This document shows positions 9,435-59,339 of a DNA stretch of 64,000 bases, piece after piece. Numbering within the stretch: position 1 is the first letter of the stretch; the number at the start of each line of letters is the position of its first letter. The stretch is taken from the NCBI GenBank assembly GCA_016214265.1, contig JACROU010000045.1, forward strand, positions 1,072 to 65,071, read 5' to 3'. Below the pieces are notes generated by a model. That model had not been told where the DNA came from. It ran no database searches and saw nothing but the letters and a program-made list of their open reading frames with translations. The translations under genes were made by a program, and so were the position numbers. The stretch is from Candidatus Omnitrophota bacterium. GTDB taxonomy: Bacteria > Omnitrophota > Omnitrophia > Omnitrophales > JACROU01.

Positions 9435-9470
9435 TCGAACGAGATCCACCCTTAGAGGAATTTAGGGGGA

Positions 9471-9498: not shown

Positions 9499-9521
9499 GT
9501 TTTGCAAAGTATTTTAAGGAA

Positions 9522-12628: not shown

Positions 12629-12635
12629 TTCTGAT

Positions 12636-16158: not shown

Positions 16159-16171
16159 TTTCTGTCCTCGC

Positions 16172-17005: not shown

Positions 17006-18891
17006 AGTTTCACCTTTTCAATGCACTCTGTAATTGCCACTGTCAATTTTCCCACACTGAGGCCAAAAGAATCCAAAATTTTGTCGCGATCACCGTGCTC
17101 AACGATTTTGTCCAGAACCGCGTGCCGATTAACATGAATATCCGTCAAACCTTTTCGTTCGCAGAATTCAAGAACACGGGCGCCAAGTCCGCCAGCGTAC
17201 ACGTGATCTTCGATCACATGCCAATTGCGGACACGGCCGGCTAAATCGATCAACAAATTTTCATCGAGTGGTTTGGCGAAACGCAAATTGACCACAGTCG
17301 CGTTAATTCCCTGCACTTTTAAAGCCTCAGCAACTTTGAGCGCACGCGAAACAAAAGATCCAAAAGCTAGAATTGCGACATCGCCACCTTCTGCCAGAAT
17401 TTCGCCTTCGCCAATCGCAAAATTTTTATGAGCATTCGACGCTGAGAGAGTAATATTTTCTTTCGGATAACGGACAGCGAAAACTCCCCGGCCCAAATTA
17501 TTCACAGCTAATTTCAACATCTGTTTCATCTCCGCTTCGTCCCATGGACTGGCAATCACCGAATTGGGAATCGTGCTGATGTAGGCAATATCATACAGTC
17601 CCTGATGTGTCGGGCCGTCAGGACCCACCACGCCGGCCCGGTCCAGACACGCAGTCACGTGAACATCTTGAATCGTGACATCGTGAATCAACTGATCAAA
17701 CGCTCTCTGCATAAACGTGGAATAAATCGCGCACACTGGCTTGAAGCCACCTCGCGAAAGCGCGCCAGCGAAAGCCACGGCATGCTGCTCAGCAATGCCG
17801 ACATCAAAAAAACGTTCAGGAAACCGTTTCTGAAATTCACCAAGACCGGTTCCGTCCGGCATCGCCGCGGTAATCGCGACAATTTTCGGATCGTCCTGGG
17901 CAAGTTCAATCAAACTGTTTACGAAAGCTTTTGTGTACCCAAGTGATTTTTCACCGGCGGGTTTCGACGAAACTTTCGGCTCTCCGGTTTTGATATCAAA
18001 AGGCGGCATCCCGTGTCCACGCTCCGGATGATTTTCGGCCGGCGCATAGCCTTTTCCCTTCTTTGTAATCACATGAAGGAGTACCGGTGTTTTAATCGAT
18101 TTGATATTCTGAAAAGTTTTCACCAAATGCTCAATATCGTGTCCATCCACGGGCCCGAAATAACGGAATCCGAGCTCTTCAAAAATAATTCCGGGCACCA
18201 TTAAATTTTTAAATCCTTCTTCCGCGTGTTTCACAAGTCGTTTGAGCCGCGGGAAATTATTCAACTGTTCTTCAACGCGTTTGCGGAGCCGGTTGTAGAT
18301 GGGCGCGGTGATAATCTGATTCAGGCACTGACTAATCGCACCGACATTTTTCGAAATCGACATTTCGTTGTCGTTGAGAATAACGAGGAGTTCTTTGCGC
18401 AAATGTCCAGCGTTGTTGAGCGCCTCAAAACAAATTCCTCCGGTGAGCGAACCGTCGCCGATAATCGCCACAACCTTTTCGTCACTTCCGCGAAGATCCC
18501 GGGCACATAAAAGCCCGAGCGCCTGCGAGACTGCCGTCGAAGCATGCCCGACGGTGAAATGGTCGTGTTCGCTTTCATCATGAGCCGAAAATCCGCTCAA
18601 CCCTCCGTGCTGACGCAACGTTCTCATCCGCGAACGACGGCCTGTGAGCAGTTTGTGCGAATAAACCTGATGGCTGACATCCCAAACAAATTTGTCGCGC
18701 GGGGAATTAAAAACATAATGAAGAGCCGTCACAATTTCCACGGCACCAAGCGACGTTCCCAAATGGCCGCCAGTTTCAGAAACCACTTCGATAATTTCTT
18801 CACGCAGCCCCTGACAGACTTCGGGTAATTTCTCAAGCGGAACCTTTTTTAAATCCTGAGGTGAATTGATCGATTCAGAAATTCTGGCCAT
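17002..18891 (-). CDS. dxs: 1-deoxy-D-xylulose-5-phosphate synthase
   Basis: 629 aa; GGHLGTSLGAVEIVTALHYVF, TPP-binding GDG...NDN, transketolase-like C-terminus. Confidence 0.9.
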   Translation of the reverse strand: MARISESINSPQDLKKVPLEKLPEVCQGLREEIIEVVSETGGHLGTSLGAVEIVTALHYVFNSPRDKFVWDVSHQVYSHKLLTGRRSRMRTLRQHGGLSGFSAHDESEHDHFTVGHASTAVSQALGLLCARDLRGSDEKVVAIIGDGSLTGGICFEALNNAGHLRKELLVILNDNEMSISKNVGAISQCLNQIITAPIYNRLRKRVEEQLNNFPRLKRLVKHAEEGFKNLMVPGIIFEELGFRYFGPVDGHDIEHLVKTFQNIKSIKTPVLLHVITKKGKGYAPAENHPERGHGMPPFDIKTGEPKVSSKPAGEKSLGYTKAFVNSLIELAQDDPKIVAITAAMPDGTGLGEFQKRFPERFFDVGIAEQHAVAFAGALSRGGFKPVCAIYSTFMQRAFDQLIHDVTIQDVHVTACLDRAGVVGPDGPTHQGLYDIAYISTIPNSVIASPWDEAEMKQMLKLAVNNLGRGVFAVRYPKENITLSASNAHKNFAIGEGEILAEGGDVAILAFGSFVSRALKVAEALKVQGINATVVNLRFAKPLDENLLIDLAGRVRNWHVIEDHVYAGGLGARVLEFCERKGLTDIHVNRHAVLDKIVEHGDRDKILDSFGLSVGKLTVAITECIEKVKL

Positions 18892-45207: not shown

Positions 45208-45741
45208 ATGACACGTAAAATATTTTGTTTAATCACAGTGCTTTTTCTTTCCTTAATTACCTCCAACCTGTTGGCGGATTCTGCCAAATCCGTTGCGGGC
45301 GTTACCTTTTCCGCTCCGTCCGCCTGGAAAGAAACCCAGCCCTCCTCCAGCATGCGCACCTATCAATTTGATATCCCGGGAAAAGCCAACCAAAACGCCG
45401 AACTGGCCGTTTTTTATTTTGGTCAAGGACAAGGCGGAAACATTCAGGGAAATATTGAACGTTGGAAAGGTCAATTTACGAAACTCGATAGCGAACAAAC
45501 CAATCCCAAAACTATCAATGACCTTAAGGTTACCGAAGTATTGTTTCAGGGAACTTATCAACTGTCCGGCGGACCAATGATGATGGCACAAGGCGACCCC
45601 GTAAAAGATTATGCGCTTTTGGGAGCGATCATCGAAGCGCCTCAGGGTGTCGTCTTTTTGAAAATGATCGGCCCGAAAGACACCGTCAATAGCTCAAAAT
45701 CAGATTTTGAAGCGCTGCTCAATGGATTGAAAAAAGCGTAA
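45208..45741 (+). CDS. hypothetical secreted protein
   Basis: 177 aa; signal peptide MTRKIFCLITVLFLSLITSNLLA; AGGGAG RBS. Confidence 0.55.
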   Translation: MTRKIFCLITVLFLSLITSNLLADSAKSVAGVTFSAPSAWKETQPSSSMRTYQFDIPGKANQNAELAVFYFGQGQGGNIQGNIERWKGQFTKLDSEQTNPKTINDLKVTEVLFQGTYQLSGGPMMMAQGDPVKDYALLGAIIEAPQGVVFLKMIGPKDTVNSSKSDFEALLNGLKKA

Positions 45742-45746: not shown

Positions 45747-46361
45747 TTATTCCAGCAATTCTTTGAATCGCTTTAAGCTGTAGAATGGAAAATCGATTCC
45801 ATTTTGATTGACCAGCCATTTGGGAACACTCCCGGCGGGATCGAGAAGAATTTGATAACGAACCTCAATTGCCCCCCCTTCTTGGGGGGTAAATTGCCAG
45901 AATGACTTAAAGAGCGCTATTCTGACAATATTTTCCTGAATAGGATAAATTCCCGGCGATACGGTAATCCGGTAGGAAATCGCTCCGGTTTTGGGATCCG
46001 AATCACGAACGCGGGAAGTCACCACATCCCGATCGGATACGGGCCACTGGAGTTTTTGGTGGAAATAAAAAAACTTCTCGCTCGAACCTTCCTTTTGAAT
46101 TTCCCGAAATTCTTTACAGTGATACATCCACTCGTGAACCCTTGCCGCGTCCTCATAAAGTTCAATCACGCGGTCTAACGGCGCTTTGACAGAAACAACT
46201 CCCTGAAATTCACTGACCGGTGAGCCCTCAACTTTGCGGGAAAAAATTTTGATACCGTCCTCATCTTTTTTAAGGTGCCATCCACCGGTATCATTTGCCA
46301 AAGCTGTGGCGCTCAACAAAAAAAATGCGGCGATGAAACCAAGCAATCCGAATTTAGGCAT
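45747..46361 (-). CDS. hypothetical secreted protein/lipoprotein
   Basis: 204 aa; signal peptide MPKFGLLGFIAAFFLLSATALA. Confidence 0.5.
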   Translation of the reverse strand: MPKFGLLGFIAAFFLLSATALANDTGGWHLKKDEDGIKIFSRKVEGSPVSEFQGVVSVKAPLDRVIELYEDAARVHEWMYHCKEFREIQKEGSSEKFFYFHQKLQWPVSDRDVVTSRVRDSDPKTGAISYRITVSPGIYPIQENIVRIALFKSFWQFTPQEGGAIEVRYQILLDPAGSVPKWLVNQNGIDFPFYSLKRFKELLE

Positions 46362-46363: not shown

Positions 46364-47167
46364 TTACGATTTTCCCACTCCGTACTTTTCTAACAGCAAC
46401 TGGGCTTCTTTATTGTCCGGGTTCATCTCCAAGGCTTTGTGAAGATAAATCCCAGTTTCTTTCAGCTTATTTTTTTTGAAATAGGTCCGGGCCAGCATGA
46501 TATATCCACTTGTCAATTTCGGATCGAGTTCGATCACTTTTTTGTAAGTCTCCTCCGCCTTTTCAAGATTCCCGCCCGCGAAAGAAGGATTAAACACAAA
46601 CATTCTGCCATAAGCGGCGAGAACCCGCGCATTATTCGGTTCCAATCTCAATGCTTTTTCAAGCAACCGTTTTGCTTTCGGACCATTTTTCATCCCGCTG
46701 GCCATACCATTAATCTTGTGCGTAAAAAGAATACTTTCAACGGTCAACACATTCGCATTTTCCTGATATTTCGAGCTGAGGGATTGGATGTAAGGAAGCC
46801 CTTCCTCCGCCAAGCGTTTTTCTTCAGATCGCAAATTTTCGGTTTGAGAATGAGAAAGCCCTTGTTGTTCACGATCGTAGCAACGAATAATATTGGCCTC
46901 TTGCTCGTAAGATTTCGCGATCAAAAATTTCAGTTCGTCGGAATTTGAGTTTTGACGAAACAGCGAAACAAGCTGAGCACGAGCCTCATTGATTTTCGCC
47001 TTGTCGTAAAGACGAACGCCGTCATTCATCAGAGTCACCGCGCTCGCGGCTTCGGCGATCGAACTGCTCTGTCCGTCGTACGGGAATTCCGCCCGGGCAG
47101 AAATGGGCTGGAGGATAGTTACACCGATCATCATGACCATCAAAAAGCGAAAAAGTTTATTTTTCAT
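46364..47167 (-). CDS. secreted TPR-repeat protein
   Basis: 267 aa; signal peptide, then several 34-residue TPR-like repeats (AYGRMFVFNPSFAGGNLEKAEETYKKVIELDPK...). Confidence 0.65.
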   Translation of the reverse strand: MKNKLFRFLMVMMIGVTILQPISARAEFPYDGQSSSIAEAASAVTLMNDGVRLYDKAKINEARAQLVSLFRQNSNSDELKFLIAKSYEQEANIIRCYDREQQGLSHSQTENLRSEEKRLAEEGLPYIQSLSSKYQENANVLTVESILFTHKINGMASGMKNGPKAKRLLEKALRLEPNNARVLAAYGRMFVFNPSFAGGNLEKAEETYKKVIELDPKLTSGYIMLARTYFKKNKLKETGIYLHKALEMNPDNKEAQLLLEKYGVGKS

Positions 47168-47186
47168 AAATCTCCTTTTAACCCTG

Positions 47187-47564
47187 TTATAAATTTATCT
47201 TAGATCGCTGTGACAATGCTACCGCCACCATAATCCAGCCAATAATAAAACTCAATCCCCCGAATGGAGTAATGATCCCCAGCGCCTTCACGCCCGTCAA
47301 CGCAAGGGCGTACAAACTCCCAGAAAACAAAACAATGCCCGCGATGATGAACCAGCCGGCGGCGGAAATAAGGCTACCTTGAGTTTTCTCCTCCAGCCAC
47401 GCGATCGCAAAAAGCGCTGCCGCGTGAATGGCATGATAAAAAATCCCCGTTTGATAAATGGTCAACATCTCGTGGCTAATGCGCTGTTTCAAACTATGCG
47501 CCCCAAAAGCTCCCAGAATGACGAACAGGGCCATGAGCAGCGCGGCTCGTTGTGCGGTTTTCAT
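47187..47564 (-). CDS. DUF423 (YgdD-like) membrane protein
   Basis: 125 aa; 4 TM; GAFGAH...IFYHAIHAAAL...FSGSLYALAL...TPFGG. Confidence 0.7.
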   Translation of the reverse strand: MKTAQRAALLMALFVILGAFGAHSLKQRISHEMLTIYQTGIFYHAIHAAALFAIAWLEEKTQGSLISAAGWFIIAGIVLFSGSLYALALTGVKALGIITPFGGLSFIIGWIMVAVALSQRSKINL

Positions 47565-47565
47565 G

Positions 47566-48276
47566 TTATTCGGACTCCCTCGTTGTTATTTTTTCTGCCT
47601 CAACCAAAAATTCCGTGATATTTTTCGCCAATTCTTTTTCATGACCGATAAAAAAATGGCCGGCTCCTTCAACACATCGGATTTCTTTCGGAGACGACAT
47701 CCGATAAAACAGCTTCTCGATCTCCGCTTTTGGGCAGGCAAAATCATTCGGAGAATAAATCAATAATTTGTCTGCGGGAATTTGGAGTGCAGATTGAGGC
47801 AACTGCCATTTAGCAAGCGGAGGTGAAACAAGGATCCCTTTGGTAATTTCTTTTTTTTCAGTCAGCAATTCCAAGGCAGGAAGACAGCCGAATGAATATC
47901 CGATCACCATCATCGGACTGGCATCATTGACAACAGAGCCAAGCGCATCAAACGCCTTCCGGCAATCCTTGAAAATTTTACTTTCATATTCCGGCGAGGT
48001 CGAATTCTCCCAAAACTCACGCTGGAAATTTTCCAAATTCTTATCGGTTTGGCTTCGCCCAATTCCTCGATAATTTAACGTCATCACCACAAAATCCCGG
48101 CCGGCAAGTTCAGGCAACAGATACCGGATCACGTTATTGCGCATATCCCCACCCAGAAACGGGTGTGGCGGGCAGATCAGAATCCGCCCCCGAGGATTTT
48201 TCAGCGTATCCGAATAAACCAGCAGGCCTTCCAGCCTCAAATCATCCGAAATAATTTCTATTGTTTCTTCAATCAT
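47566..48276 (-). CDS. alpha/beta-hydrolase (dienelactone-hydrolase-like)
   Basis: 236 aa; nucleophile elbow VIGYSFGCLPA. Confidence 0.65.
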   Translation of the reverse strand: MIEETIEIISDDLRLEGLLVYSDTLKNPRGRILICPPHPFLGGDMRNNVIRYLLPELAGRDFVVMTLNYRGIGRSQTDKNLENFQREFWENSTSPEYESKIFKDCRKAFDALGSVVNDASPMMVIGYSFGCLPALELLTEKKEITKGILVSPPLAKWQLPQSALQIPADKLLIYSPNDFACPKAEIEKLFYRMSSPKEIRCVEGAGHFFIGHEKELAKNITEFLVEAEKITTRESE

Positions 48277-48277
48277 T

Positions 48278-49585
48278 TTAGCTAGCCGGATTTTCCAAAA
48301 TTTCGTTAAACGCTCCCGTCACTTTTTTAATCAAAAATTTGATTTGAGATTCCGTAATCACAAGCGGAGGCATAAAGGTTAAAACGTTTCTGTCCTTCCC
48401 TGTTTTTCCGGCCAGAACACCCCTGTCCTTCAGCGCTTCCAAAATTCGGTCCAGATCCCGTGCCGCGGGATCCCCATTCTTCCGCCGAAGTTCAAGTCCC
48501 AGCATCAGCCCCAATCCCCGGACATCGAAAATTAGGGAATATTTCTTTTGAAGTTTGCGGCACTCTTTTTTAAGCAATGCGCCGAGCCGATTGGCGCGTT
48601 GATCCAATCGATTGGAATCCATGAAATCCAGTGTGGCTAAAGCAGCGGCCGCAGAGGTTTGAGTTCCGCCAAATGTCGAAGCTCCGGGTTTGATGTAGGA
48701 CTTCGCAATTTCATCGGTCGTGATGAACGCGCTAATCGGCAGGCCGTTTGCCAGCGCCTTACACACCGTCAAGATGTCCGGTTGAATACCAAAATGCTGA
48801 AACCCGAATTTTTTCCCGGTCCTGCAAAATCCGGTCTGCGCCTCATCGATAATCAACAACACGCCATGTTTTTTCAGAATTTTTTCGAGCCGCTCGAAAT
48901 ATTCCCGGGGCGGGACTTGAATGCCCCCGTTTCCATGAACCGATTCGGTGATCAGTGCGGCGATCCGGTTCGGATATTTATTCAATATCTTTTCAGCCTC
49001 ATCAGCGCATTTAATTTTGCAGCTAGGATACTTCAGTCCAAGCGGACACTCGTGACAGGTCGGACTTGGAATAAAATGAACATTTTCCGCAGGTTCGGGA
49101 TCCGTGCGCCAAAAAGAAATTCCAGTCACACTCGACGTCAAATAAGTCCGGCCGTGCAGTGCCTGGCGGAGCGCCATAAAATCCGTCCGCCCCGTATGCA
49201 ATTTGGCGAGCAGCATCGCCCCTTCATTGGCTTCACTGCCGCTCGTGCAAAAAAAACTGCGCCGAAGTTTCCCGGGAATAAACCGGGCCAATCGCTCAGC
49301 CAGCCGCAAAAGAGGCTCGGTAATATAAATAGTAGTCGTGTGCTGAAGATTTCGCAGCTGCTGGTAGACCGCCTTCAGAATTTTAGGATTCGAATGGCCG
49401 CAATTAACAACACCCACACCGGAATAAGCATCCAGATATTTCTTCCCGGTATCGTCGTAGAGATAAACCCCTTTGCCTTTTTTCAAAAGCATCGGGCTCT
49501 TGTAAAAATGGTAGACGCAGGGAATCAAATATTTTTTCTTCTTCTCCAAGAAGTTTTGAATGCGGCTTTTAGTGGCTGTTTTCAT
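48278..49585 (-). CDS. class III pyridoxal-phosphate-dependent aminotransferase with internal Cys4 insertion
   Basis: 435 aa; LLIIDEAQTGFCRTGKKFGFQHFGIQPDILTVCKAL (PLP-lysine region); insertion PTCHECPLGLKYPSCKIKCADEAE at about 48990-49080. Confidence 0.82.
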   Translation of the reverse strand: MKTATKSRIQNFLEKKKKYLIPCVYHFYKSPMLLKKGKGVYLYDDTGKKYLDAYSGVGVVNCGHSNPKILKAVYQQLRNLQHTTTIYITEPLLRLAERLARFIPGKLRRSFFCTSGSEANEGAMLLAKLHTGRTDFMALRQALHGRTYLTSSVTGISFWRTDPEPAENVHFIPSPTCHECPLGLKYPSCKIKCADEAEKILNKYPNRIAALITESVHGNGGIQVPPREYFERLEKILKKHGVLLIIDEAQTGFCRTGKKFGFQHFGIQPDILTVCKALANGLPISAFITTDEIAKSYIKPGASTFGGTQTSAAAALATLDFMDSNRLDQRANRLGALLKKECRKLQKKYSLIFDVRGLGLMLGLELRRKNGDPAARDLDRILEALKDRGVLAGKTGKDRNVLTFMPPLVITESQIKFLIKKVTGAFNEILENPAS

Positions 49586-51615
49586 TGCAAGATATTGAGT
49601 TTCGGTGACTCAGTGTAAGAAATGATAAGATTAGTCGGAAGCTCGGACAATGGCTCCGAAATATCCTCATTCGGATTCCCGTAAGGTCCGAGCGAAAACG
49701 GCCGAGGCGCTTCTTTTTTAAGAGAATCAAACAACGCCGCCCAGGAACTATCTGGTTTCGACTCTTCGCGGACCGTTTTCAATTTTTCACCGTATAACTC
49801 CACCAATCGCAGGAGGTACGGTGCGTCGTACAGCATCCCTTCAATTCTCAACCGTTTGATGGACGGCTGAAAAAATGATTCCAGAATATCTACCGTACAA
49901 AGATCCTTCGACATAAACACGTGATTCCGGCAATACTGATCGGCTTCCAGAAAATACAAGTCATTCAATCGGCTTCTGAGCGCATACTTAAGCCCCGTGC
50001 ATGGTCCCGAGCAGCTATCATATTTGGTCGTGCCCGTCATGTGCGCACCGATCACGCAATAATCCAGAATCATTCCCGGTACGGAACCGTGAATCAGACA
50101 TTCCATTGGCAATGCAGACTGAGAGGCAAGATTTAAAATCTGGTGCAGATTCAATTCCACGCCCGGGGTTAAAAATGAAACGCCCTCGCCCTTTAAAAAA
50201 TTTATCGCTGGCGGATTCCAAACGTTCAACGAAAAGTCCGCGTGAACGGGAACGTGGGTCAATTTCCGAACCACCTGAAGCGCCCCCAGATTGTGTACCA
50301 GATATTCATCTGGAGGACAGTCCGCAAGATCGCCGATCAGCTGCTCAATTTCCAGCAACTCCCTTTCTGTCGTGATGCGCGGGGTTTGAATGCCAATCTT
50401 CTTCCCCACTTGATGGCATTGCGTAATCAACTTTTTAAAATCGTCCCGGCTAACCGAAGTTGAAAATGGACCCGAGAACAATTCACCGCCGACATAAATC
50501 CAGTCACAGGAAGATTTCGTCAATGCCATGGCGGTTTTCAAATCGCCACAGCGCACGCTCAATTCGGGCAGAGAAACATCCACGCCCACGTTAATGGTTT
50601 CCAACAGCCGGGCTGCATCTGTCTCGGAATAAGGTTTCTCCTGAACCGCGATGGAAAAAATTCGGGGTTCCCGCTCACCATCCAAGCCTGTGGAACCGAG
50701 CCCAGGACGGGAAAAGGCATGATTGCCATCCACTTCGCGAATGGTGTGTTTTTTTAGCGCGGCCAAGTCATTAAAATCCGTTCTGTAGTGAGAAGGATTT
50801 TCATAATATCGATCGATGGCTTTCCGATATGCACTAACGATGGGCATCAGGTATTCCAATTTGCGTGCCCGGCCCTCAATCTTAAGCGATGCGATATTGG
50901 CCGCGACCAGTTCCGGTATTTGGTGAAACAGGCAAATATCTTTGCGGGCCAACACATATTTTTCTTCCACCTGGGCAAGAATCTTGGAACTGCTGCGATC
51001 CACCAAATCCCATTGCCAGCGGCAGGATTTCAAACATTTTCCTCGGTTCGAGCTCATCGACGTCGACACCCCGCTGTGAAAACATTGCGAGCTTTGAGCG
51101 ACGCACATATCACCGTGGACAAAATATTCCACCTCGAGCCCCGAACTCTGCGCAATTTCATTTGCCTGATAAACCGTAATATCCCGAGAAGTGATAATAC
51201 GGGTGACACCGTGCCGTTTCAAAATCGATGCAGAGGCACGATGATGAACATTCATCATCGTGCTGGCATGCCGGGGAATTTTGATGCCCAGCTCATTCAT
51301 TGCCTGCAGGAGTCCCAGATCGTGAAGAATCACTGCGTCGGAATTGATTTCTTCCAAAAAAGAAAAGTATTCCCTGACAGCGCCCATCTCTCCGGAAGTC
51401 AGAAGATTATTCATCGTCAAATAAACTTTCACATTTTTTCCGTGAGCATATTCAATTGCGCTTTTCAATTCACGATCTTCAAAATGAAGCCAATTCCCGT
51501 GCTGGCGCATGCTGTAGCGTTTGCCACTCAGGTAAACTGCATCGGCTCCCGCTTCAATCACGGCTTCCAAAGTTTCGCGGGTACCCGCGGGCGCTAAAAG
51601 TTCGATTTTTTTCAT
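49582..51615 (-). CDS. peptidase-U32-family protein, tandem U32 domains (RlhA/YdcP-like size)
   Basis: 677 aa; N-terminus MKKIELLAPAGTRETLEAVIEAGADAVYLSGK is a typical U32 start; second U32-like half from about aa 330. Confidence 0.82.
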   Translation of the reverse strand: MKKIELLAPAGTRETLEAVIEAGADAVYLSGKRYSMRQHGNWLHFEDRELKSAIEYAHGKNVKVYLTMNNLLTSGEMGAVREYFSFLEEINSDAVILHDLGLLQAMNELGIKIPRHASTMMNVHHRASASILKRHGVTRIITSRDITVYQANEIAQSSGLEVEYFVHGDMCVAQSSQCFHSGVSTSMSSNRGKCLKSCRWQWDLVDRSSSKILAQVEEKYVLARKDICLFHQIPELVAANIASLKIEGRARKLEYLMPIVSAYRKAIDRYYENPSHYRTDFNDLAALKKHTIREVDGNHAFSRPGLGSTGLDGEREPRIFSIAVQEKPYSETDAARLLETINVGVDVSLPELSVRCGDLKTAMALTKSSCDWIYVGGELFSGPFSTSVSRDDFKKLITQCHQVGKKIGIQTPRITTERELLEIEQLIGDLADCPPDEYLVHNLGALQVVRKLTHVPVHADFSLNVWNPPAINFLKGEGVSFLTPGVELNLHQILNLASQSALPMECLIHGSVPGMILDYCVIGAHMTGTTKYDSCSGPCTGLKYALRSRLNDLYFLEADQYCRNHVFMSKDLCTVDILESFFQPSIKRLRIEGMLYDAPYLLRLVELYGEKLKTVREESKPDSSWAALFDSLKKEAPRPFSLGPYGNPNEDISEPLSELPTNLIISYTESPKLNILQ

Positions 51616-51646
51616 TGCGATAAAACCTCGATAATCTCAAAAATCA

Positions 51647-52759
51647 TTAATAAATTCCTTCCTCAACTTTGAATTGTTGTTGCTCGAGGGGGCACGGATC
51701 GGCCAGCCCGTCCCAAATTGAGCCGAATAATTTTTCTTCATCCCCTGCCTCGACATGAACTGCGGTATCCCGTTCCATCACATTGGGGAGAAAATAACTT
51801 TCATCCAAACGGTGGAACACGACCTGTCCCCGTTTGCCAACAGTCACCTGCCGGCGCAACCGTTCGGAATCAGGCAATGTTTGATCTAGCGAAATCAAGC
51901 GGATGATGACCCTGTCATGATGAGGGAAATAACAGTTTAGGCCATTCTCTTTGCTGAGATCTTTCACACTATGGCAGACACCGAACAGTGAATTGCCATA
52001 GCCCATAATCACTTTCGCGTTCGGAAAAGCCGCCTTGAATTTCTCCCGCGTTTCCGGCTTAAGCGGCATGCCACCCAAATAAATTCCCCGGATTTTCTTT
52101 CGCCGCGAATCCGTCAACCGGTCGATCAAAGCCTCAAGCACCACCGGCGTCACAAAAACATTCTCAATCTGCTGCGTGTTCCAAACCGAAAGCGCTTGCG
52201 AGAGAATATGCTCCAAATACCGAGCCCGGGCCACTGAACCTGTTTCGAGTTTCCGGTACCAGCGCGGATCAAAATCGATGGAAAAGGCATCCGAACCGCT
52301 CATTTCTTTGGCAATGGCATTACAGGCTTTGCCAATCACGTGAGGACCTCCCGGCCCGATCCAAAGCCAGCGGCCCACGCCTGAAAAATCAAGCGCCATC
52401 GCCACGCCAATAAAACTTTCCACAAAAATTTTGTGGAACTCTTCCTCAAAATAAGCCGTGATCTTGGGACGGCCTGTCGCGCCTCCGGTTTCGGCCGTAA
52501 TCAGTTTGCGATTTTGTTGCAGAAATCGCATCGGAATAAAATCTTCTACCGGGCGCACCGACAAATCATTCAAATTCATCGGGCCCAGCCGCCACAAATC
52601 ATCCTCGGTCTGAATTTGATCCTGAATTGAAAAACCCAGGACCTTTTCTTTCTCAAGCCAATAACGGCTTCCCGATTGAGGATCCAGATGAATTTCCAGT
52701 ATCCGTTGCAGCCTCTTGGACGGGGCAAGAACATTTTCTTTTCCCGAAAACAATTTCAT
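51647..52759 (-). CDS. adenylate-forming enzyme, PaaK/LuxE-like (ANL superfamily)
   Basis: 370 aa; TGGATGRPKI (P-loop-like (S/T)GGxTGxPK) and GYGNSLFG (GYGxTE-like). Family-level call only. Confidence 0.5.
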   Translation of the reverse strand: MKLFSGKENVLAPSKRLQRILEIHLDPQSGSRYWLEKEKVLGFSIQDQIQTEDDLWRLGPMNLNDLSVRPVEDFIPMRFLQQNRKLITAETGGATGRPKITAYFEEEFHKIFVESFIGVAMALDFSGVGRWLWIGPGGPHVIGKACNAIAKEMSGSDAFSIDFDPRWYRKLETGSVARARYLEHILSQALSVWNTQQIENVFVTPVVLEALIDRLTDSRRKKIRGIYLGGMPLKPETREKFKAAFPNAKVIMGYGNSLFGVCHSVKDLSKENGLNCYFPHHDRVIIRLISLDQTLPDSERLRRQVTVGKRGQVVFHRLDESYFLPNVMERDTAVHVEAGDEEKLFGSIWDGLADPCPLEQQQFKVEEGIY

Positions 52760-54336
52760 GCCTCGGCCAGCTCCTCAAGAATACGGGTGTTGATGTTGCG
52801 AAAATGTTCGCTGAAAATATAACCCAGCTTCAAACACATGGCCTGATCGCCCAAAAGTTTCAACCGTCCCTGGAACAGAGCTTCGCGCGGATCCAGAGCT
52901 CCGCTCACTATTAACTGAAAAATCGTTTCATTCATTTCATAGCCAAAATCAGAATTGAGTTTCTCGAGCTCCTGACATTTACGAACGGAACCGCAATCAA
53001 ACTCCACGAGCTTTTCCACCGGACGGTCCCCCGTCACCCGGAAAAGCACCCGCGCTTTCACAAATTGAATCCGTTTCATAAAACTGTCGCCAAAATCATT
53101 TTCACTGAACCGTTCCAGATAGCGCTCCGGTTCTTCGGCACTCAAACAGCTCAAAGCCAACGCGTTGAGCCTCGGCGAGACTTTCCGGTTCACATATTTT
53201 TCAAGCTGAACGATGAAATCCCGGGCGATGGTTTCCAAACTCATCGTGTCCGCATGCGTCATCTCGGAACCGGTAACTGCCGGTTTCAAATCAAACACAG
53301 GAGACGAATACAGATAAGGCTCGTAAACACGCGTCGTGCGGAAAAAGCGCTCCTCAAACGGCGTGCGGCTTTTTTGCTTCCAATCTTCTTTTTCCACCAA
53401 TTCGATTCCCTCAAGTCCAAGCACGCGGCAAAAAACCGCGCGGGACTGTCCGATCGTCACTTCGGTTGAGGACAGCACGTCGAACACTTGCGACCGAATT
53501 GGCCGCTTGATCAAATTCTCAAGAATCCGGTCCGCCAGATAAAATACCGACACTAGATTCAGCCGGGTATTGGGATTCGCTCCGACCCGCATGGGAATCC
53601 TGTAAATGGAATCGCGCAGTTCAATGCCGTATTGCCGCGTCAGTTTTTTTCCGTCATGAAAATCGTCGTGGCAGCATTCCCGGATAAAATGAAGGAGTTT
53701 CAAAAAAGTGTAGAGCGTCGTCATCGTCTGCGCTTCCCCAATCACCTGTCCGCCCACCACAATGCTGGGCCGGTAAACAGAAATGACGGGCTCAGAACCA
53801 GCAAACTGCTTCTGAAGAAAAACCTCGGCTTCGAATTTTGATTTCTCATAGGGATTTTTGAATGTCTGATAACGATTGAGTTCGTTGGATGAAAAACAGA
53901 AAGGATAATTCCCCGCCACAAACGCGGTGCTGACATGATGGAAATTTTTGATTTTGAGCTTTTGGCAAAGTTCAAACGCGTGACGCACACCATCAGTATT
54001 TTGCGAGCAAATCTCGGATTCCTTGTCCTCATCGAAACACGTCATGCCAGCGCAATGAACGAAGGCATCGATGTTTCCGGTCAGGTCAGCGATGGCCTGA
54101 GAGCCAAGTCCGCAACCGGCTTGCGACACATCCCCTTCCAGAACCGTTAAGCGGTGATCGCGGTTAAGCGAACGAAGTTCTGGAAACGCATCGAAAAAGT
54201 GGGCCAGCCGTCCTTCCAGCAAGCCTTTTCGCCGGCGAAGGATGAGCGTCACGCGAAAATCTTCCGCCAAAAGACGCGCCAATACGTGCCGGCCAATATA
54301 TCCCGTTGCCCCTGTGAGTAACATATGCTGTGTCAA
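52756..54336 (-). CDS. NAD(P)-dependent acyl/thioester reductase (NAD_binding_4, fatty-acyl-CoA reductase-like) with C-terminal SCP2 sterol-carrier domain
   Basis: LLTGATGYIGRHVL Rossmann motif, YEKSK catalytic dyad; C-terminal GALDPREALFQGRLKLLGDQAMCLKL is SCP2-like. Confidence 0.7.
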   Translation of the reverse strand: MTQHMLLTGATGYIGRHVLARLLAEDFRVTLILRRRKGLLEGRLAHFFDAFPELRSLNRDHRLTVLEGDVSQAGCGLGSQAIADLTGNIDAFVHCAGMTCFDEDKESEICSQNTDGVRHAFELCQKLKIKNFHHVSTAFVAGNYPFCFSSNELNRYQTFKNPYEKSKFEAEVFLQKQFAGSEPVISVYRPSIVVGGQVIGEAQTMTTLYTFLKLLHFIRECCHDDFHDGKKLTRQYGIELRDSIYRIPMRVGANPNTRLNLVSVFYLADRILENLIKRPIRSQVFDVLSSTEVTIGQSRAVFCRVLGLEGIELVEKEDWKQKSRTPFEERFFRTTRVYEPYLYSSPVFDLKPAVTGSEMTHADTMSLETIARDFIVQLEKYVNRKVSPRLNALALSCLSAEEPERYLERFSENDFGDSFMKRIQFVKARVLFRVTGDRPVEKLVEFDCGSVRKCQELEKLNSDFGYEMNETIFQLIVSGALDPREALFQGRLKLLGDQAMCLKLGYIFSEHFRNINTRILEELAEA

Positions 54337-54384
54337 GGATAGGTCAATCCGTTCTTTGATAGGCTGAAATAAATTTCGTTCAGT

Positions 54385-55932
54385 CTAAAATTTTTGTTCA
54401 AAAGCTTTTTCGGGAAGCCTCAGGTATTTTTCCAGAATTTGAGGATCATCAAAATCTGCCTGATCAAAATAAATCATCAACGTTCCTCGCTGCCGAGGGG
54501 TTCCTGCATGATAGATTCCGGAAGCCGCAAGCAACGCTGCCTCCAGCCGGTCCACGTTCCGGACCAAACCATTTCTGTCGAACATGCTGATGGTCCCCCC
54601 GTTGAACGGAAGGCTCTCCAATTCATCATACGAAAGTAATTTATAGGAACCGCGTTCGTTGGCCTGAACGTTTTCCGGCAATTTCGGCTGAATCTCCATT
54701 ACCTCATGGGTGCCGGAAGAATAAAGGGCGATTTCGTGAGAGTTCCCTCTAAAAATCTCCACCAGCGCGGGCACATCCGCATCGATTTTTTTAGGTACCT
54801 TATTTTCAAGCACGAAATGCTTGCTGGCTAACGGAGTTTCATACTTTTCTTTGGCCCATTTCTCTAAAATTTGAGTCGGGAAAATTTTATAATAGCAGCC
54901 GCAGCTCGAAACATTTTCATACACCAGCGGCTCATTGAATTTATTTAACGCGATGCGGATAATCGATCCTTGCGTGGAGCCGACTTCCGGATCGAAACCG
55001 CCATTCAATTGCGGCCGTTCCGGAAACCACATCGTGTACACCAGAAATTTGACGCTCGCGCCTTGCACCATTTTCGTTTCGGCATAAGCATAAATCACTG
55101 GTTCGGCCACGTTCACTTTTGGCTGAGCTTTGGCGGCAGTCTTGCCTTCGATAACAATTTTTCCGAACTGGTCGTCTTTGGGATCAAAATTGATTTTCTC
55201 TTTTTTCTCCATCGCAATCACCGGGGCGTAATATTGAAGAAGCTGCCAATCATTAACCTCGGTCATCTCCTCCAACGCATCCGGAAAACTAACCGCTTCG
55301 GGACGATAAACATCGACTTGTTTCAAATTCAATTTCGGAGCAGTATGCGGTGTGGTCATGACGTGATAGCCCATCCAAGCGCGGACAAACGGAGAAAACG
55401 GCAGCAGCAACAGCTGTCTTATGGTTCGTCCCCGCGTTTTGATCGAAGAGGCGATATGCGTGGTGATGGTTTTAAAATAGCGGTCGAGCGATTGCGGATT
55501 TTGAATGCTTTCGACTTGATGAATTTCACCCTCTAATTTTTCAGAAGCATCCTTTTTGTACGACACCAGAACATGATCGTAGGCATCTCCCATTTTCTGC
55601 GCCGGAATGCGTTTCAACTCCAACTCCGTCGCTTTGTCTCCCAGCTCCTTCGCTTCGGTCAGTGTTTTGACAATAAACTTCCGTTTCGTTTCAAGGTCAC
55701 CGAATGTCCTGTACTCCTCCAGCCGGGATTTGGATTCCATATCAAACACCAAAAATTCTTTTTTCCGGACTTCAAAATAGCGGGCATCAGACACGGCTTC
55801 TTTTTGAATCAGCTTGTGGACAGTCTTCACCGAATCTGTTTCTAAAATCCGGGAACGCGATGTGGAAGCACACCCCGAAACAAACAAGACGGTAAGTACG
55901 ACAGACAGGAATTTATTGATTCGATTTTTCAT
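54385..55932 (-). CDS. hypothetical lipoprotein (515 aa)
   Basis: Lipobox MKNRINKFLSVVLTVLFVSGCAS. Confidence 0.55.
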   Translation of the reverse strand: MKNRINKFLSVVLTVLFVSGCASTSRSRILETDSVKTVHKLIQKEAVSDARYFEVRKKEFLVFDMESKSRLEEYRTFGDLETKRKFIVKTLTEAKELGDKATELELKRIPAQKMGDAYDHVLVSYKKDASEKLEGEIHQVESIQNPQSLDRYFKTITTHIASSIKTRGRTIRQLLLLPFSPFVRAWMGYHVMTTPHTAPKLNLKQVDVYRPEAVSFPDALEEMTEVNDWQLLQYYAPVIAMEKKEKINFDPKDDQFGKIVIEGKTAAKAQPKVNVAEPVIYAYAETKMVQGASVKFLVYTMWFPERPQLNGGFDPEVGSTQGSIIRIALNKFNEPLVYENVSSCGCYYKIFPTQILEKWAKEKYETPLASKHFVLENKVPKKIDADVPALVEIFRGNSHEIALYSSGTHEVMEIQPKLPENVQANERGSYKLLSYDELESLPFNGGTISMFDRNGLVRNVDRLEAALLAASGIYHAGTPRQRGTLMIYFDQADFDDPQILEKYLRLPEKAFEQKF

Positions 55933-56429
55933 ACAAGAGCCTTTTCAACGTCTTTGGCTAATTCATCCGAATATTCATGATATTCGCCGAGGATTTTCCC
56001 ATTGGTATCAATCAAAAATGAAGCGGGTAGCCCCACCACGCCGTACTCTTTTGCCGTCTCGGACCCGGAATCCAGCCAAACCGGATAATTGATCGCGAAT
56101 TTATCTTTATAGATGGCAACTTTTTTATCAGACTCCCCCACATCCACGCCTAAAATCGTGAACGATTTTTCGGAGAATTTCTTTTGCAGTTCGACTAGCT
56201 GCGGAATTTCATGCTGGCACGCGCGACACCAGGTGGCCCAAAAGTTGATCAGCACCACTTTCTTTTCTTTCAGCAAATCATTGAGATTTGAATTTTTGCC
56301 CTCAACCGAAGTGAGAGAAAATTTTGGGGCTTGTTGTCCCTGTCCCATGTCAGCATATCCCCGCCCCAAAACCGTAACCATAAATAGAAGAGCCAGGCCG
56401 CAAATCACCAAATTATTTTTTGATGTCAT
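55929..56429 (-). CDS. TlpA/ResA-like thiol-disulfide oxidoreductase (thioredoxin fold)
   Basis: WATWCRACQHE active-site CxxC; signal anchor. Confidence 0.8.
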   Translation of the reverse strand: MTSKNNLVICGLALLFMVTVLGRGYADMGQGQQAPKFSLTSVEGKNSNLNDLLKEKKVVLINFWATWCRACQHEIPQLVELQKKFSEKSFTILGVDVGESDKKVAIYKDKFAINYPVWLDSGSETAKEYGVVGLPASFLIDTNGKILGEYHEYSDELAKDVEKALV

Positions 56430-57130
56430 ACCAGCAATCCTCCCATTTTGATAAAAAGATATTCCGCAGCCAAAATCAGCAAAAAACCGAATATTTTCTT
56501 GATCCGCTCAAGCCAAATTCCCGACTTGGGCATGGACGCGATCAATCCCGTAAACGTTCCGAGCAGAATAAATAAAAATCCGACGCCGTAACCAAAAACA
56601 AAAAGCAGTGAAAATCCGTAAAATAAATTTTTCTTGCTCCCGACGTAAACCAGAATCGAGGCAAGCACTGGCGCGGTACAAGGCCCAACAATCAGTCCCG
56701 CAAGCGCGCCCATGATAAACACGCCCAGGACGCCTTCTTTTTTTTTCTGAAGCTTGCTGGGGAAAATTTGTATTTGCGGAAAAATATATTCGCTCACCAT
56801 CGACAGTCCGAAAAACAAATAGGCATTCCCGACGACAAAATAGGTCCACGGATTCGATGAAATCTGTCCGAAAAGCTGCCCGGACATGGACGCAATCAGT
56901 CCCAAAACGGCGTAGCTGATGGCCATTCCCAAAACAAAAATGAGCGAAATCGTAAACCCTCGAAACCGGGATCCGGAACTCCGCGCGCCAATGACGCCAA
57001 GTGTGAGCGGGATTACCGGATAAACGCACGGGGTGAAACTCACGAGAATTCCTGCGAGGTAAACCGCGATGAAAGCCAGTATGGGATGAAAGTGAATCAT
57101 CTCTTGTGTGTTCGCAAAAAATGCCTGCAT
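56426..57130 (-). CDS. ccdA: cytochrome c-type biogenesis protein CcdA (DsbD family)
   Basis: 234 aa; 6 TM; conserved Cys in FTPCVYPVIP and GPCTAPVL. Confidence 0.82.
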   Translation of the reverse strand: MQAFFANTQEMIHFHPILAFIAVYLAGILVSFTPCVYPVIPLTLGVIGARSSGSRFRGFTISLIFVLGMAISYAVLGLIASMSGQLFGQISSNPWTYFVVGNAYLFFGLSMVSEYIFPQIQIFPSKLQKKKEGVLGVFIMGALAGLIVGPCTAPVLASILVYVGSKKNLFYGFSLLFVFGYGVGFLFILLGTFTGLIASMPKSGIWLERIKKIFGFLLILAAEYLFIKMGGLLV

Positions 57131-57259: not shown

Positions 57260-58681
57260 TTAGAACGGCAGGGAAACCGTAAATACTGTCCCCTGTTCCA
57301 GTTGGCTCTCTACGTGAATCGTGCCTTCGTGGGCGGAAACAATGGCTTTGCAGACAGACAGCCCAAGGCCATAATTCGTAATTCCGGACGACCGGGAGGG
57401 GTCAACACGGTAAAACCGGTCAAAAATTTTATCCAGGTGTTCCGCCGCAATTCCGCGCCCCGTATCCGAAATTTTCATCACAACCTGATGTCCTTCCGGG
57501 GCAGCTTCGATGCAAACCTTGCCTCCGGGACGGTTATAATTGATAGCATTATCCACGAGATTAAACAGAAGCTGGCGAAGCAATGTTTTATCCCCGCGAA
57601 CTACGATTTCATCCGATAATTTTTGCGCCAATTGAACATTTTTTGAAACATGAAGCGGTTCGAAAAAATCGAGAAGCTCGTCTAGAAGTTTCCCAAGCGA
57701 AACCCTCTCGGCATGCAATTTCACCTGCCCGTTATCTACCCGCGCCAGAAAAAGCATGCTTTCAATGAGCTGGGAGAGTCGCTCCAACTCCTCCAATTGA
57801 CTGACCAGCACGTCCTGATACTCAGCGAGTTCCCTTTTTTTACCGAGCGTCACCTCAATCTGATTTTTCATGACCGCAATCGGAGTTTTCAGTTCGTGGG
57901 ACGCGTCCGAAGTGAACTGGGAAATTCTTTCATACGAATTCTGAATACGCGCCAGCATCGTATTAAAGGTGGACGCCAGCCGATCAAAATCGTCCCCGCT
58001 TCCTTTTAACGTCAGCCGTTCATCCAGTTTGTTGACCGTAATCGCTTCCATTTTTTTGGTGATTCTTCGAACCGGCCGGAGCGCAAACCAGGCCAAAACC
58101 CAGCCAAAAATTACTGCCATCAAAAACAAATTGGGCAGCATCCAGAATAATTTGTCTAAATAAATTTGCAGTTTTTCATGAATCACATCCAGATAAGATC
58201 CAATAAAAATATAATTGACCGTCTGCCCCCGGTCATCCGCAGACACATAAGCAGCGACATAATATCTTTTTCCTTTTGGATCTTTGACATCAAAAAACAT
58301 TTCACTGTTCTTCTTGACCTGCAAAGCATCAAGACGTTTGAGCACATCCTCAAAGCCTCCACCACCGGCATAGCTGATCACTTTTCTTTTGGAATCTAGA
58401 ATTTGGTAACTGGACGAATACTCCGGACGCTCGGAAAGTTCCTTGTCAATCCACTGTACTAGTTCCAGACCAAATGGCTGACGTTTCAGCATCGAAGCCA
58501 CTTCCTGAGTTTCGTGACCAAGAAAAAACGCAGCCCCTTTGTAAAGAGTCCGCCGAAGACCGAAATAGAAATATCCCGCAAGGATGGTGATAATTAGGAG
58601 GAAAAAGAGCGCATTCCACAGTGCCAATTGAATGCGAATGCCACCAAAAAACCGCGTGAAAAAATTCTGTTTATTGATCAA
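57260..58681 (-). CDS. two-component sensor histidine kinase (HAMP, HisKA, HATPase_c)
   Basis: 2 TM plus HAMP; H-box FTSDASHELKTPIA; N, G1 (DTGRGI) and G2 (GLGLSV) boxes. Confidence 0.88.
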   Translation of the reverse strand: MINKQNFFTRFFGGIRIQLALWNALFFLLIITILAGYFYFGLRRTLYKGAAFFLGHETQEVASMLKRQPFGLELVQWIDKELSERPEYSSSYQILDSKRKVISYAGGGGFEDVLKRLDALQVKKNSEMFFDVKDPKGKRYYVAAYVSADDRGQTVNYIFIGSYLDVIHEKLQIYLDKLFWMLPNLFLMAVIFGWVLAWFALRPVRRITKKMEAITVNKLDERLTLKGSGDDFDRLASTFNTMLARIQNSYERISQFTSDASHELKTPIAVMKNQIEVTLGKKRELAEYQDVLVSQLEELERLSQLIESMLFLARVDNGQVKLHAERVSLGKLLDELLDFFEPLHVSKNVQLAQKLSDEIVVRGDKTLLRQLLFNLVDNAINYNRPGGKVCIEAAPEGHQVVMKISDTGRGIAAEHLDKIFDRFYRVDPSRSSGITNYGLGLSVCKAIVSAHEGTIHVESQLEQGTVFTVSLPF

Positions 58682-59339
58682 TGGAATAACCGACTCCTTT
58701 TATCGTTTTGATTAATTTCCGCTCAAAATCGCTGTCGATTTTCTCCCGAAGCCGTTTAATGTGAACATCGATCACATTCGAACCGGTAATCGCCGAGTAA
58801 TCCCAGATATGCTCCATCATCACTGAGCGGGTCATCACCCGTCCCTTATTTTCTATAAGGTGCTGAAGAATGGCGAATTCTTTAGGACGAAGATCAATTT
58901 TTTGACCGCCACGAATGACTTCACGAGTGGCAAGATTCATTGTGAGATCGTCGATTTTTAAAATATTTTGAGGGGCACCGCTTTTCCGACGGTGAATCGC
59001 ACGAATGCGGGCCAGAAGCTCGGTAAACGAAAACGGCTTCACCAGATAATCGTCTCCGCCCAAATCCAATCCTCGAACGCGGTCTTCGAGCGATCCTTTC
59101 GCGCTTAAAATCAGAACGGGCATGTGACTGGAACTGTCCCTGATTTTTTTCAGCACCTCCAGGCCATCCATTTTGGGCAGAAGAACATCGAGGATAATGC
59201 AATCGTAAGCGACGCTTTCGGTGAATTCCAGCCCTTCAACGCCGTCATAGGCGACGTCCACGGCGTATGACTGTTCCTCCAGTCCTTTTTTCAATGACAG
59301 CGCCAGTTTTTTTTGATCTTCAATAATCAAAATTCGCAT
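58671..59339 (-). CDS. OmpR-family response regulator
   Basis: Receiver domain (DVLLPKMDG, phospho-acceptor Asp) plus winged-helix C-terminus (GYSIDQ end). Confidence 0.9.
   Translation of the reverse strand: MRILIIEDQKKLALSLKKGLEEQSYAVDVAYDGVEGLEFTESVAYDCIILDVLLPKMDGLEVLKKIRDSSSHMPVLILSAKGSLEDRVRGLDLGGDDYLVKPFSFTELLARIRAIHRRKSGAPQNILKIDDLTMNLATREVIRGGQKIDLRPKEFAILQHLIENKGRVMTRSVMMEHIWDYSAITGSNVIDVHIKRLREKIDSDFERKLIKTIKGVGYSIDQ

Follow-up and report, generated by a model that had tools for sequence, protein, structure and literature searches.

An EhpF-like adenylase lies at the center of an Omnitrophota gene cluster

We analyzed a 64,000-nucleotide stretch of contig JACROU010000045.1 from a Candidatus Omnitrophota bacterium (hereafter the window), in which a cluster located entirely on the minus strand encodes a short-chain dehydrogenase/reductase (SDR) fused to an SCP2 domain, a 370-amino-acid protein, a tandem U32 protein, a class III pyridoxal phosphate (PLP) aminotransferase, an alpha/beta hydrolase and several smaller products. 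A preliminary description had read these genes as a tightly packed operon converting a fatty acyl group to an aldehyde and then to an amine, or as a related lipid- or quinone-modification cassette. The open reading frame (ORF) coordinates and junctions matched that description, including the six to eight co-directional genes with 4-nt overlaps or gaps of <35 nt, and the catalytic motifs of all four enzymes are intact. Such packing, however, is not special as evidence for an operon here: GC skew is negative throughout, and nearly all unshadowed ORFs of at least 150 amino acids between positions 9800 and 63000 lie on the minus strand. Because nearly every ORF there runs the same way, co-directionality on this contig is uninformative for operons, and the gene set was thus tested as a unit by its conservation in other genomes. 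A promoter and terminator scan of the window returned signals at background level only.

When searched against Pfam, the 370-amino-acid protein gave a weak match to PF00501 (AMP-binding, E=4.6e-5) that fell below the cut-off. A profile built from 19 cluster proteins was next compared with the PDB and matched EhpF (3l2k/3hgu) over its full length with E=4e-50, positions 4-358 of 358 aligning to residues 19-366 of 366 of the EhpF chain. EhpF is an "atypical ANL" adenylase of D-alanylgriseoluteic acid (phenazine) biosynthesis that lacks the C-terminal subdomain, and the proteins of the cluster family (324-393 amino acids) also end where the ANL N-terminal domain ends. The window protein carries a P-loop (TGGATGRPK at residue 91) and a GYGN motif at residue 253, with invariant T91, G93, G96 and P98. 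On sequence grounds, we class it as an EhpF-type truncated ANL adenylase, whose gene defines the cluster. It had been described as a PaaK/LuxE-like adenylating enzyme, which was not borne out, as PF04443 (LuxE) gave no match at E<=0.01 and no PaaK structure appeared among the PDB matches of the profile at E<=1; it nevertheless stays within the ANL superfamily of adenylases and was not reassigned to an unrelated family.

Bera and colleagues reportedly proposed in 2010 that EhpF and its partner EhpG form an aldehyde by reducing one of the two carboxylates of phenazine-1,6-dicarboxylate. In Pantoea and on Streptomyces plasmids, EhpF-like genes are followed by an aldehyde-dehydrogenase-family gene and lie inside clusters for phenazines or other chorismate-derived aromatic compounds, and one such relative bears the annotation "arylcarboxylate reductase." The window adenylase thus shares with EhpF/EhpG of Pantoea agglomerans and with ThnN-type relatives the truncated ANL architecture, the conserved P-loop, a gene position next to a reductase and a common adenylate-then-reduce logic for a carboxylate. 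It differs from EhpF in sequence (approximately 29% identity), in its partner, which in the window and in all cluster loci is an NAD_binding_4 SDR and not an EhpG-type aldehyde dehydrogenase, associated with SCP2 and followed by an aminotransferase, and in its context of futalosine, resistance-nodulation-division (RND) transporter and U32 genes instead of phenazine genes.

Reductase, U32 protein and aminotransferase retain their catalytic motifs

The first enzyme of the cluster had been described as an NAD_binding_4 reductase with a YxxxK motif fused to an SCP2 lipid-carrier domain, and both Pfam and the motifs agree. Residues 1 to ~350 match PF07993 (NAD_binding_4, E=5.6e-38), with GATGYIG at residue 9 and YEKSK at residue 163, and the score against this family (131 bits) well exceeds that against Epimerase (58 bits), so the protein is not a sugar epimerase. 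Residues 421-508 match PF02036 (SCP2) with E=2.4e-4 and 21.8 bits against a cut-off of 21.3 bits, and this region matched SCP2 chains in the PDB at E about 1e-3; in Scalindua, where SCP2 forms a separate ORF, the match to PF02036 is stronger (E=1.4e-11). The nearest solved relatives of the protein are the reductase domains of MxaA and of carboxylic acid reductases (CARs), plus SCP2 structures. Membership in the CAR family itself was rejected, given that the reductase reached 100 bits with the TIGR01746 thioester-reductase model, below the 213-bit cut-off.

The proposed sequence of activating an acid, reducing it to an aldehyde and transaminating the product fits these assignments, the ANL adenylase, the SDR and the class III PLP enzyme being conserved together. 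This logic of ATP-dependent activation, NAD(P)H-dependent reduction and class III transamination is shared with systems that join a CAR to an omega-transaminase, such as the reductase-aminotransferase PigE, and with LuxCDE. Unlike in CARs, there is no phosphopantetheine carrier domain, and adenylase and reductase are separate proteins; unlike in LuxCDE, there is neither a LuxE match nor a LuxC- or LuxD-type protein. Pairing an EhpF-type adenylase with a thioester-reductase SDR in the absence of a carrier protein is new among two-protein carboxylate reductases. In two gammaproteobacterial loci (L006, positions 3863-5563, and L007), a PP-binding acyl carrier protein (ACP)-ketosynthase fusion lies directly upstream of the reductase-SCP2 gene and could provide a carrier or extension step restricted to this lineage.

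The tandem-U32 assignment also held, with PF01136 (Peptidase_U32) matching in two stretches at E=1.3e-93. Each half contains four cysteines (C171/178/194/198 and C520/535/539/562) that are invariant in 13 cluster U32 proteins. UbiU and UbiV each bind a 4Fe-4S cluster, and by analogy each half of the tandem protein would be expected to bind one as well, making it a predicted iron-sulfur enzyme of the O2-independent hydroxylase family. The RlhA N-domain, UbiU and TrhP each align with both halves, at 25-32% identity. Membership in the UbiU, UbiV and TrhP families was rejected, as scores remained under the NCBIfam cut-offs (162.7 bits versus 440 for UbiU, 76.7 versus 275 for UbiV, and TrhP also below), and so was orthology to RlhA: both halves align to RlhA residues 7-268 and leave its C-terminal half unmatched, so that the two proteins are not collinear. 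An exhaustive HMMER search placed the protein within a larger family of collinear tandem-U32 proteins (~630-690 amino acids, 30-54% identity); since this wider family exists, the U32 component is not specific to the cluster. Compared with the UbiT-UbiU-UbiV system, the cluster shares two four-cysteine U32 domains beside an SCP2 domain, a quinone-related context and low-oxygen host organisms. However, the two U32 domains are fused here in one chain (27-28% identity to Escherichia coli UbiU and UbiV), SCP2 is fused to a reductase and barely similar to UbiT, and the linked genes are mqn instead of ubi genes.

The aminotransferase, described as a class III PLP enzyme, indeed matches PF00202 (Aminotran_3, E=9e-99) and places the PLP lysine, K276, within a TVCKA motif. 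Its best solved relatives are gamma-aminobutyrate, acetylornithine and omega-transaminases, and none of the NCBIfam equivalog cut-offs was reached; we class it as a generic omega-type enzyme.

The gene set recurs across five phyla

Relatives of the adenylase are rare, being found in 119 of 185,579 species genomes and in 247 metagenome stretches, and the gene set around them recurs, in varied order, in more than 150 loci from Planctomycetota, Omnitrophota, Pseudomonadota, Thermodesulfobacteriota and Lentisphaerota; the genes therefore do co-occur in other genomes. Hosts include all anammox genera sampled (Scalindua, Brocadia, Kuenenia, Anammoxibacter, Loosdrechtia and Wunengus), gammaproteobacterial metagenome-assembled genomes including Sedimenticolaceae, Magnetococcales, Thermodesulfobacteriota/Desulfobulbaceae, Phycisphaerae, Gemmataceae, Lentisphaerae and Omnitrophota. 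No published description of the cluster was found in the literature searched; the "F390 synthetase" of the ladderane paper is part of a different, fatty-acid gene cluster.

Component frequencies were measured by tblastn and all-against-all ORF clustering in 44 full-context loci, with at least 8 kb on each side of the adenylase gene. The reductase was present in 42/44 (95%), SCP2, either fused or as a separate ORF, in 43/44 (98%), and the class III aminotransferase in 41/44 (93%), followed by an MMPL/HAE3-type RND transporter (86%), the tandem U32 protein (70%; 22/22 anammox loci and 9/22 others) and the alpha/beta hydrolase (57%). The presence of a 515-amino-acid lipoprotein (p515), a TPR protein and a DUF547 protein was lineage specific. 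The Omnitrophota-type loci closest to the window (L090-L092) run in the order reductase-SCP2, adenylase, a paralog of the menaquinone biosynthesis protein MqnD, aminotransferase, p515, hydrolase, RND and DUF423, preceded in L090 by a response regulator-histidine kinase pair. "Minimal" variants consist of genes for the reductase, the EhpF-like protein and the hydrolase, to which YceI and a single U32-like gene may be added. Among the species-genome loci, the cluster closest to that of the window, with 57-69% protein identity and the same p515-hydrolase-TPR tail, is found in L005 (JAJCYG010000036.1), which is labeled "Actinomycetes bacterium"; this closeness indicates either a binning error or a recent transfer. 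In Scalinduaceae and Thermodesulfobacteriota loci (L036, positions 16006-17421; L038 and L054), the cluster is flanked by B12-binding radical SAM genes, whose products may be additional tailoring enzymes such as methylases.

The RND transporters of the relatives resemble HAE3 and HpnN. Membership in HpnN was rejected, as the Scalindua protein scored far below the cut-offs (106 bits versus 752 for TIGR03480 and 78 versus 1100 for NF052374), with 204 versus 352 for the HAE3 model. The co-occurrence of a class III aminotransferase and an HpnN-like RND exporter in one cluster is shared with hopanoid biosynthesis, in which the class III aminotransferase HpnO gives a terminal amine on a membrane lipid. 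No hopanoid-type genes (squalene-hopene cyclase, HpnH, HpnG) were observed among the neighbor families examined, and hopanoid synthesis, to our knowledge, includes nothing comparable to the carboxylate-activation step.

The cluster is repeatedly merged with futalosine pathway genes

In three independent architectures, the cluster is physically merged with genes of the futalosine pathway for menaquinone. In the first, a PF02621 MqnD paralog (MqnD2, E=3.4e-61) lies between the adenylase gene and the aminotransferase or U32 gene, as seen in L005 and in Omnitrophota-type and Planctomycetota-type loci. MqnD2 has its closest match in Archaeoglobus AF1704 (1e-53), Thermus MqnD being more remote (1e-38), and its nearest homologs share contigs with EhpF-like adenylase genes. 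In the second, gammaproteobacterial superclusters carry mqnA, mqnC, mqnE, an MTAN-like gene and a canonical mqnD between or beside the cluster genes; one of them (L093) also contains two MMPL-type RND genes (positions 7336-9753 and 12426-14522), one of which is divergent and located just upstream of the MqnD paralog. The third architecture, found on ten metagenome contigs, joins, in this order, MqnA, MqnE, MqnC, reductase-SCP2, RND, adenylase, hydrolase, U32 and aminotransferase; in L128 and L167, the two contigs examined closely, these form a tight co-directional run. The mqn proteins of the relatives were identified by scores below the cut-offs for MqnC (421 bits versus 428) and MqnE (366 versus 435), and by PDB match for MqnD and MqnA.

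Redox proteins are also found beside the cluster. The runs in L142 and L167 continue into multiheme cytochromes, one of them of the NapC/NirT type in L142, and in anammox loci cytochrome b and multiheme cytochromes directly follow the aminotransferase. YceI occurs in 8 loci and a UbiE-like methyltransferase in 4, additional pointers to quinones and isoprenoids. In L167 (positions 4125-6374) and L142 (positions 4061-6283), the MqnE-like and MqnC-like radical SAM proteins are apparently fused in a single ORF of ~745 amino acids. Immediately upstream of the MqnA-to-aminotransferase operon of L167 (positions 378-3034) lie a group II intron reverse transcriptase/maturase and a phage-type integrase, neighbors that suggest that the module is mobile.

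Every intermediate of the futalosine pathway after MqnA carries an aryl carboxylate, which would suit an EhpF-type enzyme, and in related loci the cluster is co-operonic with MqnA, MqnE, MqnC and MqnD-family genes. In contrast, none of the cluster enzymes is part of the futalosine pathway as described, and the MqnD-family member forms a separate, AF1704-like clade.

The tandem U32 protein and MqnD2 show complementary distributions. In 74 loci with at least 5 kb on each side, 49 had only U32, 17 only MqnD2, one (L005) both and seven neither (Fisher p=2e-10, not corrected for phylogeny). After collapsing the adenylases at 65% identity, the counts became 13, 13, 1 and 6, respectively, and two 55%-identity adenylase groups contained both the U32 and the MqnD2 state. 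Gammaproteobacteria with a canonical mqnD nearby still have U32 or MqnD2, so the two proteins are alternatives within the pathway and not plain substitutes for MqnD. This complementarity gives a concrete, testable lead to the function of either protein.

The conserved module extends upstream of the reductase

The conserved module reaches farther upstream than the start reported earlier, from at least position 46364 (TPR) to 55932 (p515). It probably also takes in the TlpA-like gene, for an extent of about 46364-56429, and the CcdA gene up to 57130, and it may reach as far as the two-component system ending at 59339 (Table 1). The deposited proteins HZC17_05365 and HZC17_05375 are identical to two window proteins, and an exact-sequence look-up of the reductase matched no record.

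Table 1. Genes of the cluster and of its flanks in the window
Gene product	Positions	Strand	Junction or remarks
OmpR-type response regulator	58671-59339	-	PF00072 and PF00486
HAMP/HisKA histidine kinase	57260-58681	-	PF00672, PF00512, PF02518
CcdA/DsbD-type membrane protein	56426-57130	-	4-nt overlap with TlpA-like gene
TlpA-like thioredoxin-fold protein	55929-56429	-	4-nt overlap with p515 gene
p515 lipoprotein, 515 amino acids	54385-55932	-	upstream of reductase
Reductase-SCP2	52756-54336	-	4-nt overlap with gene of 370-amino-acid protein
370-amino-acid adenylase (predicted)	51647-52759	-	4-nt overlap with reductase gene
Tandem U32 protein	49582-51615	-	31-nt gap to adenylase gene
Class III aminotransferase	48278-49585	-	4-nt overlap with U32 gene
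Alpha/beta hydrolase	47566-48276	-	1-nt gap to aminotransferase gene
DUF423 protein	47187-47564	-	1-nt gap to hydrolase gene
TPR protein	46364-47167	-	19-nt gap to DUF423 gene
START-domain protein	45747-46361	-	2-nt gap to TPR gene; last of co-directional run

Among the accessory proteins, p515 is a lipoprotein family specific to the cluster and found almost only with it, with 37 protein clusters recovered among 5.8 billion proteins. It has no Pfam or NCBIfam match; its lipobox cysteine (Cys21) and a CGC motif at residues 344-346 are invariant. The AlphaFold2 model of p515 is confident (pLDDT 88, pTM 0.86) and gave no match at E<=0.001 when compared with the PDB by Foldseek. In many loci p515 and the hydrolase form an adjacent pair, and the hydrolase adjoins the EhpF-like gene or p515 in most non-anammox loci (17/22).

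The alpha/beta hydrolase, DUF423 membrane protein and secreted TPR protein of the preliminary description were recovered by Pfam and signal peptide prediction. The hydrolase (PF12146/PF00561) is a cytoplasmic alpha/beta-fold serine hydrolase with a GYSFG nucleophile elbow at residue 126. DUF423 (PF04241, E=1.7e-28) also closes the cluster in L090 and L092 and was found nowhere else among the loci compared, and is likely a lineage-specific accessory. The exported TPR protein, which matches TPR Pfam families and has a signal peptide, has relatives in 23 loci, located inside the cluster in L005 (223 bits) and between the U32 and aminotransferase genes in Scalindua-type loci.

Upstream, the TlpA-like protein (PF00578/PF08534) is exported, with a CxxC motif (CRAC) at residue 68, and is probably an accessory part of the cluster; in L091 a relative (117 bits) immediately precedes the reductase, and in L155 and L169 one is located upstream of the SCP2 gene. 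The CcdA/DsbD protein (PF02683 DsbD_TM, E=3.9e-45) is of the thiol-reductant transporter type, and its membership is uncertain; that of the START protein (PF01852, E=9.7e-13), which is exported and has a lipid-binding domain, is unproven. Neither these two genes nor a GT4 gene had counterparts in the other loci compared. Relatives of the histidine kinase occur in 24 loci, the best (260 bits) directly upstream of the cluster in the Omnitrophota locus L090. The response regulator-kinase pair lies directly upstream of the reductase in that locus and beside the cluster in several gammaproteobacterial loci; the two proteins may regulate the module, although their membership is uncertain.

Elsewhere in the window, the sole plus-strand gene near the cluster (positions 45208-45741) lies convergent to the end of the cluster and encodes an exported 177-amino-acid protein that gave no match in Pfam. 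An ORF of more than 3,153 codons (positions 1-9461, minus strand) runs off the window start and represents a giant protein gene. Another ORF of 2,508 amino acids (positions 26071-33597, minus strand) has a signal-like N-terminal segment and an Ala/Leu/Val/Gly/Ser-rich composition, and its product is probably a giant surface protein.

A possible aminomethyl-naphthoquinone pathway

We tentatively favor the interpretation, to which we give somewhat less than an even chance, that the cluster encodes an undescribed futalosine-type naphthoquinone branch in which reduction of an aryl carboxylate gives an aldehyde that is then aminated to an aminomethyl group. Family assignments, catalytic motifs, conservation and the physical linkage to mqn genes are observed, whereas we infer what the substrate and the product are and in which order the steps occur. 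The EhpF-type adenylase would first activate an aromatic carboxylate as an acyl-adenylate, as its family suggests; the likeliest substrate would be the 6-carboxyl of 1,4-dihydroxy-6-naphthoate, a prenylated form of it, or an earlier intermediate with the same benzoate carboxyl. The SDR, which takes the place of the aldehyde-dehydrogenase-type partner of the known EhpF-like clusters, would then reduce the activated acid to the aldehyde with NAD(P)H, while the hydrophobic substrate would be held by SCP2, a role that UbiT and UbiJ have in ubiquinone synthesis. In a third step, the class III aminotransferase would turn the aldehyde into an aminomethyl group. The tandem U32 iron-sulfur protein may next carry out an O2-independent oxidation of the ring or side chain, and in other lineages, where a dedicated MqnD paralog occupies the equivalent slot, the step could be an oxidation or a ring formation. 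Finally, in most relatives the HAE3/HpnN-like RND transporter would move the product out of the cytoplasmic membrane, to be handled in the periplasm by p515, the TPR protein, DUF547 and the TlpA-like redoxin.

The suggestion of a quinone-modification cassette proves to be the better half of the preliminary description. The association with SCP2, from which a lipid substrate had been argued, is real (43/44 loci), yet we found no evidence for a fatty-acyl substrate, and the context points instead to an aromatic acid derived from chorismate or futalosine.

Several observations weigh against our favored interpretation. We know of no aminomethyl-naphthoquinone from these organisms. No mqn gene was matched in the 64 kb of the window at E<1 beyond noise, and none was found within 10 kb in the anammox loci. 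A UbiA/MenA-type prenyltransferase was found in none of ~170 loci (tblastn with E. coli queries only, of limited sensitivity), and the version with a prenylated substrate is weakened because of this result. Furthermore, the substrate of EhpF itself is said to have been assigned by Bera and colleagues from mutant accumulation and bioinformatics. Outside L006 and L007 the reductase has no carrier beside it, and no PP-binding domain was detected by Pfam in the window genes. Enzymes of the class III fold also include racemases and phospho-lyases. The RND pump present in most relatives is absent from all 64 kb of the window. Lastly, the "minimal" variants have neither aminotransferase nor RND pump; amination is thus not universal.

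A different use of the same chemistry would be a small, non-prenylated aminomethyl-naphthoquinone or naphthoquinol, exported by the RND transporter and serving as a periplasmic or extracellular redox shuttle or cofactor for multiheme cytochromes. We consider this unlikely, although a number of observations fit it. Besides the lack of prenyltransferase matches, the gammaproteobacterial superclusters have early mqn genes and none of the late MqnP, MqnL and MqnM. Many parts are exported (p515, TPR, DUF547, the TlpA-like protein and the families f20 and f26), two unrelated architectures have multiheme and NapC/NirT-type cytochrome genes co-transcribed downstream, and the intron reverse transcriptase and integrase flanking the L167 operon suggest a mobile module. 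However, SCP2, YceI, START and the HpnN-like RND suit a lipid better than a small polar amine, the prenyltransferase could be encoded elsewhere in the genome, and no cytochrome genes adjoin the cluster in the window or in the gammaproteobacterial loci.

These lipid-handling parts (SCP2, the HAE3/HpnN-like RND, START and YceI) are instead what would be expected if a fatty, aliphatic or isoprenoid acid were converted through a fatty aldehyde to a long-chain amine or aminolipid, with U32 acting as hydroxylase and the outer membrane as the destination of the exported product. The reductase shares its Pfam family with fatty acyl-CoA reductases, and the ACP-ketosynthase fusion precedes it in L006 and L007. 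This scheme nonetheless seems quite improbable to us: the adenylase is of the EhpF type and not of the FadD, FAAL or LuxE type, and its relatives examined lie in aromatic-metabolite clusters. In addition, the repeated merging with mqn genes would be left without explanation, and the recurrent neighbor families examined contain no fatty-acid synthesis or acyl-carrier genes outside L006 and L007.

The cluster could also be an alternative finish to ordinary menaquinone, in which a route through the C6 carboxyl replaces the UbiD/UbiX-type MqnL/MqnM and no new product is made. The late steps of the futalosine pathway are still predictions (PMC4746308), and the linkage to early mqn genes and the lack of mqnL/M-like genes in most loci would agree with such a role. 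Yet reduction and transamination keep the carbon, making an unsubstituted menaquinone impossible. Moreover, L043 and L150 have UbiD-like genes close to the cluster, a housekeeping quinone would not be expected to come with an exporter and periplasmic proteins, and the cluster is far rarer (119/185,579 species) than the futalosine pathway. We regard this explanation as very unlikely. Lastly, a chance grouping of unrelated housekeeping genes (a U32 RNA hydroxylase, an ArgD-like aminotransferase and an SDR) in a co-directional genome is scarcely credible: the whole 53-kb stretch is indeed co-directional, promoter and terminator scans are at background and the U32 and aminotransferase families are large, but the recurrence of the set in more than 150 loci of five phyla in varied order, and the nearly exclusive occurrence of p515 with it, refute chance juxtaposition.

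Implications for quinone biology in low-oxygen bacteria

On our best reading, the system would work like EhpF/EhpG plus an omega-transaminase, equipped with a UbiT/U/V-like oxidation module and grafted onto the Mqn pathway. A broader version of this proposal, which we hold to be possible but doubtful, is that the cluster and the early futalosine enzymes form a horizontally mobile module for a new nitrogen-bearing naphthoquinone (e.g., 6-aminomethyl, prenylated or not), a dedicated redox carrier or shuttle that would serve specific cytochrome b and multiheme cytochrome c complexes of anammox bacteria and other inhabitants of suboxic zones. The U32 protein and the MqnD paralog would then be two evolutionary solutions to one step.

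The gammaproteobacterial genomes analyzed here carry futalosine genes, unlike their phylum in a 2024 survey of complete genomes, in which the pathway was not found in Pseudomonadota (PMC11707229). The cluster also represents a new SCP2-assisted pathway and gives the U32 "O2-independent hydroxylase" proteins a new functional context beyond ubiquinone and RNA modification. If the proposed pathway is correct, it would add a new branch to one of the two menaquinone pathways. Anammox bacteria are globally important in nitrogen loss, and all known anammox genera would contain an unrecognized quinone-type molecule, as would uncultured Omnitrophota, Magnetococcales, sulfur-oxidizing Gammaproteobacteria and Desulfobulbaceae.

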